The notes below the pieces were generated by a model. That model had not been told where the DNA came from and did no database searches. It worked only from the letters and a program-made list of their open reading frames with translations. Positions 52,510 to 58,301 of a stretch of 64,000 nt of DNA are shown piece after piece. This DNA comes from Minisyncoccota bacterium (GTDB lineage Bacteria; Patescibacteriota; Minisyncoccia; Phycocordibacterales; PALSA-1337): contig JBAZRG010000002.1 in NCBI GenBank assembly GCA_041663145.1, positions 94,618 through 158,617 of the forward strand, given 5' to 3'. Positions within the stretch are counted from its first letter, which is position 1; each line of letters opens with the position of its first letter. Both the position numbers and the translations under genes were made by a program.

Positions 52510-52677
52510 CTATGTGCCAATATACTCGATTAGTCAGACTTGTCTAGGTGTTGTAAAATGGTTCCAACAGCGTCCCATCCGGCCAGCAAATGATCTGTAC
52601 CCCATAAAGTGGACACTTTACGGAGGTACCAATGTTTTCTTGGACGTGGAACTATACCACATGCTAATATTTTCAAT

Positions 52678-53139
52678 ATGAAATGGAAACATCCGCCGAT
52701 TATAAAGATATATGAGGCACTTGGTTCGGTTGCTGATGGACGTGTTGAAGTGGATGGTAATACGGCCAAGATATATTCATCCAGTCGTAATAAATATTAT
52801 GATGTGTTATACGATCCTAACAATGGATCTATCATGACTAATGATAACGGATCATATTGGAAAGGTTATCTAGGGTATCCAGCCATAGCATTTTTGATGA
52901 AAATCGGATCATTATCTCATGATCCGGATCTAGCTGAACTTCTTAAAGGGATTGCTTGGAAGGATATAAATCAAAAGTTCAAAAATGATTTTGATAAGAC
53001 ATTGGAATACATACTTTCGGACAAAACTGATGATAATAGAAAACAACTTGAAGATTACGCTCGAAAAGTTGATAAGGAGATTTCAGATTTGAATTTGAAT
53101 ATGCTTGGTAAAAAGGTTTTACCACCAGATGGTTATTGA
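52678..53139 (+). CDS. hypothetical protein, copy 1 of a duplicated 153-aa gene
   Basis: MKWKHPPIIKIYEALGSVADGRVEVDGNTAKIYSS... A second copy at 57747-58208 is nearly identical, differing by H/Y and Q/R only. Confidence 0.5.
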   Translation: MKWKHPPIIKIYEALGSVADGRVEVDGNTAKIYSSSRNKYYDVLYDPNNGSIMTNDNGSYWKGYLGYPAIAFLMKIGSLSHDPDLAELLKGIAWKDINQKFKNDFDKTLEYILSDKTDDNRKQLEDYARKVDKEISDLNLNMLGKKVLPPDGY

Positions 53140-53335
53140 TTTTCAAAGATAGTTGCAAGTCTGGGAAATTGTCTTAGAAGATATGTGAGACGAATTGATT
53201 CGTCTGAGATGATTGAGAATATTTTACCGGATCATGTCGGATATTTTTCAAAATACATAGATGGTTGAGCCTATAACAGAGAACTAGTAGGTTTTTATAT
53301 ACCACGTTACTTAGGTAGATAAGTCAATAAATATA

Positions 53336-53363
53336 TTGACACTTGAGATAAATTGTGTAATAT
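53336..53363 (+). promoter_or_regulatory. sigma70-like promoter for the MVP-like gene
   Basis: TTGACA, a 16-nt spacer ending in TGTG, then TAATAT (extended -10). It leaves a leader of about 85 nt. Confidence 0.4.
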
Positions 53364-53452
53364 TCCTGTTCAGATCAAGTCTTCAACCTGTTGTTGAAAA
53401 CTTGGACAGAAACTGTACAGTTCACTGAAAAAACAACGAGAGAAAGATATAT

Positions 53453-57117: not shown

Positions 57118-57157
57118 TAAGTTGAGAAATTTAGTCACAAGAAAAGGTGGAAAGGTT

Positions 57158-57436
57158 ATGATACTGTTATCTGTGGACTTCTCTATGGTATTCTTGTGAC
57201 ATGGATTTAGCCACTTTCAGAAAGGAATATATTAGTACGACACACTCATATTGTTCTCCGGTGATGCGGATTTCGTAAGCCTCATAAATTATCTCAAAAA
57301 GAAGGGTAAAAAGGTCGTCCTATTCAAGGGTGGTTATATAACGTCTTCACTGAGGAATGCGGCTGATAGGGTGGTAAATGCTCAAAGCATAAAGAAGTAC
57401 ATCGCCGAGATGGTGAAAAGCAAAAACCTGGCTTAA
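57158..57436 (+). pseudogene. remnant of a NYN-domain (LabA-like) gene, internally deleted and frameshifted
   Basis: GGTGG RBS followed by ATG and a 13-codon ORF (MILLSVDFSMVFL*). A second frame then encodes LILFSGDADFVSLINYLKKKGKKVVLF, the C-terminal SGDsDF...G-K-V motif of NYN domains. The catalytic N-terminal part is missing. Confidence 0.4.
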
Positions 57437-57746
57437 CGGCCAGGTTTTGCGAATCGATAACCCGTATCCACGGGCAGGTAACATAAGCATAGCAGGTCCT
57501 CGGATCCTGATCAACTGACGATGCAAAATGGGTGGATAACCATCTTTTTGGCTACCGGTCTTTATCCAGAATATTAATCTAATTAAATGATGTTTAAAGT
57601 GAGTCATATCTGGCTAATTATTATCAAATACGCACGGCTCGACAGGTTCCGGAAGCGCATTCTATCTTCTTGGCCTCATGCGATTCATTATTTCTGTCTT
57701 TGAGTCCTTAGACATGGAACTGTACCACGTGCTATTATTTTTTAAT

Positions 57747-58208
57747 ATGAAATGGAAACATCCGCCGATTATAAAGATATATGAAGCACTTGGTTCGGTT
57801 GCTGATGGACGTGTCGAAGTAGATGGTAATACGGCCAAGATATATTCATCCAGTCGTAATAAATATTATGATGTGTTATACGATCCTAACAATGGATCTA
57901 TCATGACTAATGATAACGGATCATATTGGAAAGGTTATCTAGGGTATCCAGCTATAGCATTTTTGATGAAAATCGGATCATTATCTTATGATCCGGATCT
58001 GGCTGAACTTCTTAAGGGGATTGCTTGGAAGGATATAAATCAAAAATTCAAAAATGATTTTGATAAGACATTGGAATACATACTTTCGGACAAGACTGAT
58101 GATAATAGAAAACGACTTGAAGATTACGCTCGAAAAGTTGATAAGGAGATTTCAGATTTGAATTTGAATATGCTTGGTAAAAAGGTTTTACCGCCGGATG
58201 GTTATTAA
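57747..58208 (+). CDS. hypothetical protein, copy 2 of the duplicated 153-aa gene
   Basis: Near-identical to 52678-53139. Identity extends from about 30 nt upstream of the start to the stop. Confidence 0.5.
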   Translation: MKWKHPPIIKIYEALGSVADGRVEVDGNTAKIYSSSRNKYYDVLYDPNNGSIMTNDNGSYWKGYLGYPAIAFLMKIGSLSYDPDLAELLKGIAWKDINQKFKNDFDKTLEYILSDKTDDNRKRLEDYARKVDKEISDLNLNMLGKKVLPPDGY

Positions 58209-58301
58209 TTTCTTATATTTTTGAACGAATAATTTAATGAAAATCACTCCAGAACCGTAATTATGGAGTGAGTGTGATGAATGCTATACTTGTGAATCTT
58301 T

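Follow-up and report, generated by a model that had tools for sequence, protein, structure and literature searches.

The window analyzed here, a 64,000-nt stretch of a Patescibacteria chromosome, contains two direct repeats of ~505 nt, each consisting of a promoter-like site followed by an intact gene for a 153-amino-acid (aa) protein. Copy A occupies positions 52640 to 53143 of the forward strand (coding sequence [CDS] 52678 to 53139, stop codon TGA), and copy B occupies positions 57708 to 58212 of the same strand (CDS 57747 to 58208, stop codon TAA). The distance between the two CDS starts is 5069 nt, and the segment bracketed by the repeats is 4.6 kb. The original prediction, which had placed the repeats at 52650 to 53140 and 57720 to 58210, was close to the real positions. 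The repeat unit begins ~38 to 39 nt before the ATG and ends ~4 nt after the stop codon, and beyond both edges the flanks were unalignable, with identity down to the random level. The promoter-like site of copy B (TAGACA, 18 nt, TGnTATTAT) was found at 57709 to 57738.

Comparison of the two copies revealed 97% nucleotide identity in the CDS and ~84% in the 38 nt upstream. The CDSs differed at 13 positions, all of them transitions, comprising 10 synonymous changes, two amino acid changes (H81Y and Q123R, the only two, as predicted), and the stop codon. These differences were distributed rather uniformly over the gene, and no mosaic of conversion tracts was obvious; runs of perfect identity of 131 nt and 78 nt were present. 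Both copies are under strong purifying selection (dS of 0.115, dN of 0.0055, and dN/dS of 0.048). Position 81 is Y or F in 97 of 101 homologs; copy B has the family-typical Y81, and the H81 of copy A is unique among the 101. The copies are mutual nearest relatives at 98.7% aa identity, the next of >1000 homologs being no more than 75% identical.

The genes between the repeats were confirmed by Pfam matches to be those described from the sequence, namely, an MVP-like gene, an IMPase-family gene, and a decayed NYN gene. The MVP-like gene (53453 to 56041, forward strand) is intact and encodes 862 aa. A sigma-70-like promoter precedes it on the same strand at 53336 to 53363 (TTGACA, 16 nt, TAATAT; 10/12 matches), and a putative intrinsic terminator, read from the sequence as a stem (CTCGCAC...GTGCGAG) and then a T run, follows on that strand at 56073 to 56107. 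The protein matched MVP_shoulder (PF11978) over residues 537 to 649 (E value of 1.3e-24; 86.9 bits against a cutoff of 25) and gave a single Vault_3 match (7e-07) which, at 29.7 bits, was barely above the cutoff of 28.8. It has >5600 homologs, the closest being 85%, 70%, and 67% identical. A profile of the MVPs of this clade matched rat and human MVP collinearly over positions 469 to 786 (E value of 1e-27); a single-sequence search with the MVP-like protein did not reach the solved MVP structures. With a GC3 of 0.57, the gene stands at the upper end of the window range (0.41 +/- 0.07), and a high GC3 was also observed for MVP in two related loci (L007 and L008).

The IMPase-superfamily phosphatase gene (56187 to 57065, forward strand) is intact and encodes 292 aa with the motifs EE(81), DPLDGT(100), and WD(231). 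The protein matched Inositol_P (Pfam E value of 4.8e-15; 56.2 bits against a cutoff of 27) and the SuhB and IMPase structures (8e-08), and its NCBIfam scores for the named IMPase equivalogs (CysQ, HisN, SuhB, etc.) were far under the cutoffs, e.g., 48 versus 229 bits for CysQ. A promoter-like site lies at 56121 to 56149, and a terminator-like hairpin lies at 57088 to 57107. Separate transcription is thus predicted for the MVP-like gene, the IMPase-like gene, and copy B, each of which has promoter-like or terminator-like sites of its own. The NYN (LabA/DUF88-type) pseudogene at 57184 to 57436 of the forward strand retains the start region and about the C-terminal third. It was correctly described as a remnant, having in-frame stops, a partial profile match, and, compared with the sister genome L172 (from SRR24236060), a deletion of ~365 nt in its interior. 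The open reading frame (ORF) of its C-terminal fragment (57251 to 57436) matched NYN at 1.2e-07 over profile positions 100 to 142 of 145, and no complete domain with the N-terminal acidic catalytic residues was present in this fragment. The noncoding spacer that follows (57437 to 57707, forward strand) is shared with L172 at 93% identity, and beyond its right edge the two genomes are no longer syntenic.

Outside the repeats, a gene of the HD_3 phosphohydrolase family (51916 to 52509, reverse strand; HD_3, 2e-31) is divergent from copy A, and HD_3 homologs were found near the same 153-aa gene family in 4 other loci. On the right, a 74-aa orphan ORF (58302 to 58526, reverse strand), hydrophobic and convergent with copy B, gave only a weak TrbC/VirB2-like match under the curated cutoff. 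The segment lies ~1.8 kb downstream of a tRNA-Gln, in a variable region. In the whole window, tRNAs were the only Rfam matches.

The two copies are 100% identical to deposited proteins (P0001 for copy A and P0002 for copy B) that carry the precomputed annotation PF27709.1, and gene tables label the family UCP014422, an uncharacterized conserved protein (UCP). The family name is taken solely from these precomputed annotations, and direct hmmscan searches of Pfam (a set lacking the PF27709 model), NCBIfam, PADLOC, and PHROGs gave no matches. The bracketing protein, originally described as having no known function, can thus be assigned to a family, which is itself without a function in annotation and literature; a search for published work on PF27709/UCP014422 found none. 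More than 1000 homologs align end to end at 63 to 75% identity with a length nearly fixed at 153 aa. The family is distributed patchily among Patescibacteria and DPANN archaea, with 50 to 75% identity across them, and was absent from IMG/VR viral contigs. Its invariant motifs, NDNGSYWKGYLGYP, WKDINQKFKNDF, and a C-terminal PPxGY, are all present in both copies, and copy A, itself the first sequence of a 48-sequence alignment, matches all 32 invariant columns of that alignment. One other bin contained two family paralogs, with 71% aa identity. The low GC3 of the two copies was considered as a mark of foreign genes and rejected as a general signal, since the GC3 of UCP genes tracks that of their neighbors across 78 loci (mean difference of -0.03).

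The AF2 model of the 153-aa protein (pLDDT of 95.9) exhibited a C-terminal helical bundle. Sequence and profile searches of the PDB gave noise only, and Foldseek searches of the PDB and BFVD with the model gave nothing significant, so that the profile and structure searches suggested in the original prediction yielded a confident fold but no solved relative in these two databases. The protein only weakly resembles the SWIM zinc finger (ZSWIM8 and Shu2) and lacks the zinc site: its 2 His and 0 Cys leave no CxCxnCxH signature of SWIM, Pfam gave no SWIM match, and the C-terminal helical bundle is extra relative to SWIM domains. Rare fusions of UCP014422 were found, to a NYN domain (L007) and to DNA polymerase A (P0372), and combined with the weak, zincless SWIM likeness, these hint at a nucleic-acid role. 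Our best guess, drawn from the weak fold similarity and the two rare fusions and nothing else, is that the protein may be a small nucleic-acid- or protein-binding adaptor, zincless and SWIM-like in its N-terminal half and helical in its C-terminal half.

The gene neighborhoods of both families were then compared across other genomes. A set of 86 other UCP014422 loci, with available flanks of up to 10 kb, contained no case of a neighboring MVP, IMPase homolog, or second UCP copy, and two near-identical copies 5 kb apart are therefore unusual. Similarly, neither UCP014422 nor an IMPase homolog was found near MVP in 80 further MVP loci, most of which are from phyla without UCP014422. The UCP-MVP-IMPase-NYN-UCP unit was absent from the 86 UCP loci and from 84 MVP loci. 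The most common UCP neighbor was a NUDIX-like gene, named by its sequence motif (17 of 83 loci). MVP had no conserved neighbor and no vault partner among the MVP loci, and the TIR/vault preprint contains nothing on the gene neighborhoods of bacterial MVP. Of the four to six same-clade MVP loci, L007 (SRR33452760), whose MVP is the closest relative (85% identical), is the only one that also has UCP014422, 4.2 kb upstream with four unrelated genes between; this UCP014422 is the one fused to a NYN domain. No UCP was found within the flanks of L008 to L010, and the MVP context differs among L007 to L010. The proximity in L007 might be a weak trace of an ancestral neighborhood of the two genes. A search for the 153-aa gene beside MVP elsewhere thus revealed no recurrent pairing, and the proposal that it may be a functional partner of MVP was not borne out. 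We also considered whether the NYN remnant and copy B are a broken NYN-UCP fusion like that of L007. This was rejected, as the L007 NYN is only remotely similar to that of the window and L172, the L172 NYN is not followed by UCP, and such a fusion was seen in just 1 of 87 loci.

In two relatives (L037 and L076), UCP is kept beside a prfB-ftsEX-pyrG block. Copy A lies ~3.6 kb after pyrG, which fits the pyrG-UCP synteny of L037. The sister genome L172, whose rsgA has 95% nucleotide identity to that of this genome, exhibits the order NYN, ~1 kb, and then rsgA, with no UCP gene. Positions 9653 to 9701 of L172 correspond to 57184 to 57232 of the window at 100% identity, and L172 from 10067 onward corresponds to the window from 57236 onward at 93%; the homology stops at about 57708 to 57712, with the break placed at 57708|57709, which coincides with the left edge of copy B. 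Just downstream of rsgA, L172 has a relic of the MVP 3' end and its terminator. The terminator is also conserved after MVP in L007 and L008; homology with the L007 MVP locus begins at 53372 of the window, just 3' of the MVP promoter-like site. Since the NYN gene and the MVP relic adjoin rsgA in L172, the inner segment appears to be old local chromosome rather than cargo, and the relic indicates that MVP predates the split of the lineages. The relic, together with the high GC3 common to L007 and L008, weakened the idea of MVP as a recent horizontal arrival. The sister comparison is of one contig, a mosaic rearrangement with no clean empty site that departs from the window to the left as well as to the right of NYN, and it is therefore compatible with the alternative that copy B may have been lost in the sister lineage. 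The dS of 0.115 between the copies compares with 0.18 for rsgA and about 7% divergence for the NYN pseudogene region, both between this genome and L172. The duplication, originally described as recent, would instead be roughly as old as a species-level split.

Support for the assembly was obtained from an independent Logan contig (L091 from SRR18595301, 4680 nt), which is 100% identical to positions 53094 to 57773 of the window and reproduces both inner junctions. Each end of this contig lies 30 nt past the last copy-specific variant, as expected of a k=31 assembler at a repeat, indicating that both alleles are present in the reads and that each is tied to its own inner flank. The contig stops inside both repeats and gives no phasing across them, and queries with the exact HD_3 protein, a 277-aa protein, and copy B found no independent contig on record across the outer junctions. 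The concern about an assembly duplication was thus answered for the inner junctions but not for the outer ones, and with the former reproduced by an independent assembly, a simple assembly duplication of the UCP gene is unlikely.

No recombinase, transposase, or integrase was found by Pfam, NCBIfam, PHROGs, or PADLOC among the proteins scanned from 50.8 to 60.5 kb. There were no terminal inverted repeats or target-site duplications, and a repeat search from 48 to 64 kb gave only the UCP direct repeat and a hairpin at 49050 to 49149. The suggestion that the segment looks like a mobilized module is not supported, given these results, the absence of the unit elsewhere, the separate predicted transcription units within it, and the NYN gene and MVP relic near rsgA in L172. 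Excision or amplification by homologous recombination is possible in principle, given the 131- and 78-nt identical runs, but its products, sought as exact hybrid proteins (H81/R123 and Y81/Q123) in a collection of 15 billion proteins, were not found; this is weak evidence, as samples of this population are few.

The explanation that we favor, and hold to be somewhat probable, is that an accessory gene was duplicated within the genome as a gene-sized unit, in a rearrangement-prone stretch, from pyrG to rsgA, of a Candidatus Paceibacterota (Patescibacteria) chromosome. Its direct support comes from the repeats and their boundaries, the selection on both copies, the absence of the unit from other loci, and the interruption of synteny where copy B begins. 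The duplicated unit would be a self-contained expression cassette in which the promoter-like site is directly followed by the 153-aa ORF, with a transcript that is probably leaderless or nearly so. Copy A would occupy the original position, a few kilobases downstream of prfB-ftsE-ftsX-pyrG as in relatives, giving a direction of duplication from A to B, and copy B would have landed at a synteny breakpoint beside the old, decaying NYN gene. Since both copies are under purifying selection, the cell most likely benefits from two, through dosage or, given the H81 of copy A, through incipient divergence. The MVP-like gene, the IMPase-like gene, and the NYN pseudogene would be bystanders already in the neighborhood, not cargo or partners. 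Such a gene-exact boundary needs either later erosion of nonfunctional flanks or gene conversion between older paralogs.

The latter possibility can be extended to a different origin, in which old UCP paralogs, arising by early duplication or acquisition, have diverged or rearranged flanks and a coding region homogenized by RecA-mediated gene conversion, the gene-sized boundary then being the limit of homology and not of the original duplication. The sharp loss of identity at the gene edges, the lower identity of the 38 nt upstream than of the CDS, the identical runs, which could support conversion, and the existence of older duplicates in the family (the bin with 71% aa identity) are consistent with this. 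However, the even spread of the 13 differences argues against it, the higher CDS identity is explained by the low dN/dS alone, and the nearest homolog, at 75% identity, is too distant for tracts to be detected; we regard this origin as unlikely. Rather improbable is the integration of a 5.07-kb circle (UCP-MVP-IMPase-NYN') by a single Campbell-type crossover at a resident UCP gene, by which route it could also excise or amplify. The geometry fits, with direct repeats one homologous gene long around a 4.6-kb insert, the GC3 of MVP is an outlier in the window, MVP has different contexts in L007 to L010, and the Logan contig, not crossing the repeats, is equally compatible with a circle. On the other hand, no integrase, relaxase, replication gene, or transposase was found, the NYN gene ~1 kb upstream of rsgA and the MVP relic just downstream of it in L172 place both genes in the neighborhood by descent, and the dS would make any integration old. 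The absence of UCP014422 from viral contigs and, weakly, that of the hybrid proteins also count against it.

We consider it very improbable that a single UCP gene plus a strain variant or small circle was threaded into an apparent tandem. Short-read assemblers have difficulty with ~500-nt repeats that are 97% identical, the Logan contig breaks at both repeats, and no independent contig on record covers the outer junctions. However, the copies differ in upstream and downstream sequence and at 13 internal sites and have been under selection of the kind typical for genuine paralogs, the inner junctions are reproduced at 100% identity, and two protein records are deposited on one 187-kb contig. 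The order NYN'-rsgA also mirrors the sister chromosome; with NYN' on a separate molecule, this agreement would have to be accidental. Just as little credence can be given to a partnership in which the 153-aa protein serves the MVP-like protein as cargo, assembly factor, or regulator and two copies meet a stoichiometric need. Copy A precedes MVP by 313 nt and shares its strand, and L007 carries both genes, but neither the 86 UCP loci (flanks of up to 10 kb) nor the 80 other MVP loci pair them, no UCP lies in the flanks of the same-clade loci L008 to L010, a strong promoter-like site belongs to MVP itself with copy A as a separate unit, and the family is widespread in genomes without MVP seen near it. 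A broader reading joins several of these ideas: PF27709/UCP014422 would be a horizontally spreading accessory module of CPR/DPANN ultrasmall symbionts, a zincless SWIM-like adaptor targeting NYN RNases or DNA polymerase A, and the two copies here would also form a recombination switch deleting or amplifying the MVP-IMPase segment. This is a long shot; if the switch were true, it would imply population-level copy number variation of a bacterial vault-like protein.

Structurally, there is nothing exceptional about the locus, in which one gene has been duplicated within a reshuffled region of a small genome. The 153-aa family is strikingly conserved and has never been studied, and with two selected copies here, it is a reasonable target for work on the lineage-specific biology of ultrasmall symbionts. 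The MVP-like gene is intact in this Paceibacterota lineage and was lost in the sister lineage, leaving a 3' relic, which shows that bacterial vault homologs are dispensable and often rearranged stand-alone genes rather than parts of operons.

Bacterial MVP homologs were previously described from Myxococcales, Cytophagales, Oscillatoriales, and gut phages (Sokolskyi 2019, bioRxiv 10.1101/872010; phage MVPs, bioRxiv 10.1101/2023.11.10.566534), whereas the MVP-like gene described here is from a Patescibacteria metagenome-assembled genome. The 862-aa protein shares with eukaryotic MVP the shoulder, a vault repeat, and the same length, and it is collinear with the rat and human proteins over the C-terminal half. 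The segment as a whole resembles composite transposons and integrative elements in having direct repeats around a few unrelated genes near a tRNA-Gln. In contrast to those elements, its repeats encode a nontransposase protein, and its inner genes are ancestral neighbors of rsgA in the sister genome. With two ~0.5-kb direct repeats around a 4.6-kb segment, it is also similar to the RecA-substrate direct repeats that arise by segmental or gene duplication in bacterial chromosomes, but it differs in that the repeat is exactly one promoter-plus-ORF unit, not a longer segment, whose copies are 3% diverged and conserved by selection.

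The segment is bracketed by two ORFs of 153 aa in direct orientation and 5069 nt apart, copy A at 52678 to 53139 and copy B at 57747 to 58208, which carry the locus tags WC648_02825 and WC648_02845 in the source record of this Candidatus Paceibacterota MAG. Pairwise alignment including the flanks placed the repeat units at 52640 to 53143 and 57708 to 58212; similarity extended from 38 to 39 nt 5' of the ATG to about 4 nt past the stop codon, and the flanks outside these limits were unrelated in sequence. The 13 differences between the CDSs were all transitions and comprised 10 synonymous changes, two amino acid replacements (H81Y and Q123R), and one stop codon change (TGA to TAA), in agreement with the original prediction of two direct repeats encoding the same protein with two amino acid differences. 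The resulting values were dS = 0.115, dN = 0.0055, and dN/dS = 0.048, and both copies are maintained by purifying selection. The 38 nt upstream were about 84% identical. With identical runs of 131 and 78 nt, homologous recombination between the copies, as proposed, is physically possible; the hybrid proteins expected from it were absent from a collection of 15 billion proteins, which is weak evidence given how sparsely this population has been sampled. Copies A and B are far closer to each other (98.7% identity) than to any other homolog (at most 75%), which favors an intragenomic origin. Residue 81 is Tyr or Phe in 97 of 101 homologs, Tyr in copy B, and His in copy A, a small hint that constraint may be relaxed or shifting in copy A.

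Between the copies lie an MVP-like gene of 862 aa at 53453 to 56041 (Pfam MVP_shoulder, 1.3e-24, and Vault_3), an IMPase-family gene of 292 aa at 56187 to 57065 with EE, DPLDGT, and WD motifs, and an NYN fragment at 57251 to 57436 which matches only about the last third of the NYN model. The predicted gene content was thus borne out by domain and motif matches. A profile of the MVP clade matched the solved rat and human MVP with an E value of 1e-27, collinear over residues 469 to 786; bacterial and phage MVP homologs have already been described, though they are uncharacterized (bioRxiv 10.1101/872010; 10.1101/2023.11.10.566534). The GC3 of the MVP-like gene (0.57) was the highest of the 43 long ORFs of the window (0.41 ± 0.07), and its orthologs on two contigs with close MVP relatives, L007 and L008, were likewise far richer in GC3 than their own contigs, for which an old transfer and codon bias are candidate causes. 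Copy B is preceded by a promoter-like site (TAGACA-18-TGnTATTAT) ending 9 nt 5' of the ATG, with homologous sequence before copy A. The MVP-like gene has a promoter-like TTGACA-16-TAATAT and a clear intrinsic terminator at 56073 to 56107, and the IMPase gene likewise has a promoter-like site and a terminator-like hairpin of its own. From these signals, the genes of the segment are predicted to be separate transcription units.

The bracketing protein belongs to UCP014422 (PF27709). More than 1000 homologs at 63 to 75% identity, nearly all of exactly 153 aa, carried a precomputed match to this Pfam family, and a profile search run exhaustively over 1.84 billion cluster representatives recovered 479 UCP014422 clusters, nearly all stand-alone and 150 to 165 aa long. 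In one-genome-per-species collections the family occurred in Patescibacteria and DPANN archaea (Woesearchaeota and Pacearchaeota), where a scan of 185,579 species based on two peptide patterns gave 160 confirmed loci; it was absent from IMG/VR viral contigs. High conservation together with a patchy, domain-crossing distribution is consistent with horizontal spread of an accessory gene. No paper mentioning PF27709 or UCP014422 was found in the literature. In a very confident AlphaFold2 model (pLDDT 95.9, pTM 0.91), the N-terminal half consists of a four-stranded sheet with helices, and the C-terminal half forms a helical bundle. The sole clue to function, a possible tie to nucleic acids, comes from rare fusions: a 347-aa protein (L007:54-1097) in which an NYN nuclease domain (up to about residue 194) is joined to a full UCP014422 domain, and P0372, a 720-aa cluster representative with UCP014422 N-terminal to a family A DNA polymerase (DNA_pol_A, 2e-159; weak exonuclease domain match). 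The former was the only such fusion, and the only extended UCP014422 ORF, among 87 loci. One bin, CAIKAN01 (AM-2014_bin-3203), carried two UCP014422 paralogs, 71% identical, on separate contigs (L011:7211-7669 and L024:10001-10459), attributable to a genuine older duplication or to mixing in the bin.

The 153-aa protein had also been proposed as a partner of the MVP-like protein. At 86 other UCP014422 loci, taken from 80 reference genomes with flanks reaching up to 10 kb per side and from six contigs, there was no MVP homolog, no homolog of the window's IMPase, and no second UCP014422 copy. The commonest neighbor, at 17 of 83 loci, was a NUDIX-like gene named by sequence motif, and no conserved partner gene was found across these 83. 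Conversely, 80 further metagenomic MVP loci (0.93 Mb) yielded no UCP014422, no IMPase homolog, and no conserved MVP neighbor, this side of the comparison having low power since most of these loci come from phyla that lack UCP014422. In the MVP clade to which the window's gene belongs, both genes occur on L007, with the fusion gene four genes (4.2 kb) upstream of the closest relative of the window's MVP (85% identical) and mreB, mreC, and PBP2 between them; L008, L009, and L010 had no UCP014422 within their flanks. Given this lack of linkage and the independent transcription units, partnership with MVP is not supported, and we regard it as very improbable.

The surroundings were informative about the history of the locus. 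In the window, the housekeeping block prfB-ftsE-ftsX-pyrG (44.3 to 49.0 kb) is separated from rsgA (at 60971) by about 12 kb of mostly orphan genes, a stretch that includes the repeats. In L037 (Yonathbacteria), UCP014422 comes about 3 kb after this block and on the same strand, and in L076 it directly adjoins the block, indicating that copy A, 3.6 kb after pyrG, is at the site where relatives keep the gene. Between the pyrG stop and tRNA-Gln, about 1.7 kb (49050 to 50750) is occupied solely by overlapping orphan ORFs; none matched Pfam, and Rfam scans at permissive thresholds were likewise negative. An inverted repeat (49050 to 49149; 36-nt arms, 89% complementary) lies immediately after pyrG. 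Directly after tRNA-Gln is a 312-aa orphan (50858 to 51796; GC 0.34; DUF4145 match at E 0.0012, under the curated cutoff), possibly the remnant of an integrated element. In L037, a 445-aa protein resembling a large serine recombinase, judged from sequence rather than a Pfam scan, lies 0.8 kb downstream of UCP014422 (11287 to 12624), which suggests that the stretch after pyrG/UCP014422 is an integration hotspot in relatives. The isochorismatase-like gene of the window (215 aa; 59876 to 60523) has two homologous copies (46 to 47% identical) in another Patescibacteria genome, spaced 3 kb apart in the vicinity of UCP014422 (L016:2138-2707 and L016:5209-5778).

The NYN remnant, used as a query, retrieved a fragment of 95% identity on L172, a contig from another sample representing a close sister lineage (rsgA 95% nucleotide identity, dS 0.18; NYN pseudogene region about 7% different). 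L172 9653 to 9701 matched window 57184 to 57232 (100%) and L172 10067 to 10538 matched 57236 to 57708 (93%), so that about 365 nt, including the catalytic N-terminal part, have been deleted from within the window NYN. On L172 a frameshift splits NYN into overlapping 116- and 88-aa ORFs (9670 to 10267), and all 11 database relatives are short ORFs of 61 to 129 aa; decay of this NYN lineage thus seems to be under way in several relatives. The left boundary of repeat copy B is precisely where the homology stops; L172 has no UCP014422 there, and about 0.7 kb of unrelated sequence leads up to rsgA. Farther downstream, past rsgA and a 98-aa gene, L172:12850-12929 retains a relic of the last approximately 20 nt of the MVP CDS and its terminator, which can be aligned with the corresponding 3' ends of MVP in the window, L007, and L008. 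The ancestor shared by the two lineages therefore already had NYN, MVP, and rsgA as neighbors, and the sister lineage subsequently lost MVP. Since window and L172 differ on both sides of NYN, the region is a rearrangement hotspot. A 102-aa gene upstream of rsgA (60524 to 60819) has its L172 homolog downstream of rsgA (12506 to 12800) at 75% nucleotide identity, a divergence which, next to 95% for rsgA, suggests paralogy or local shuffling.

These data bear on how the repeats arose. The original prediction envisaged a recently duplicated or mobilized module. The dS of 0.115 between the copies, compared with the rsgA dS and the NYN divergence, makes the duplication roughly as old as the species-level split from L172 and thus not very recent. 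Campbell-type integration of a circular unit carrying UCP014422, MVP, IMPase, and the NYN remnant would also yield flanking direct repeats; the ancestral neighborhood shows that the inner segment is old local chromosome rather than imported cargo, no mobility gene or terminal repeats were found, and the repeats are old, leaving this origin quite unlikely. An assembly artifact was weighed with an independent Logan contig, L091 (SRR18595301; 4680 nt), which contains the exact MVP protein and is 100% identical to window 53094 to 57773. Each of its ends lies 30 nt past the last copy-specific variant, as expected of a k=31 assembler halting at a repeat. L091 thus joins the A-type 3' end to MVP and the B-type upstream region to the NYN remnant, reproducing both inner junctions, but it does not phase across the repeats and alone is compatible with one chromosomal copy accompanied by a 5.07-kb circle. 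Exact-protein look-ups for contigs spanning the outer junctions gave no match. The L172 comparison makes a free circle unlikely, and an artifact is accordingly hard to credit.

Homogenization of older paralogs by gene conversion would account for the similarity of the copies and is an unlikely though conceivable origin. We consider it probable instead that a self-contained promoter-plus-ORF cassette was duplicated as a gene-sized unit, most likely from the copy A position to the breakpoint adjoining NYN. The second copy would have been retained since two copies are useful, and any duplicated nonfunctional flank would have eroded since. The interest of the locus lies in UCP014422 as an uncharacterized, very conserved CPR/DPANN family, and in the evidence here for the vault-like gene as dispensable and stand-alone. 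Nothing in the segment is of a new kind: gene duplications yielding direct repeats are commonplace, copies A and B being another instance, and both belong to a family already in Pfam as PF27709.
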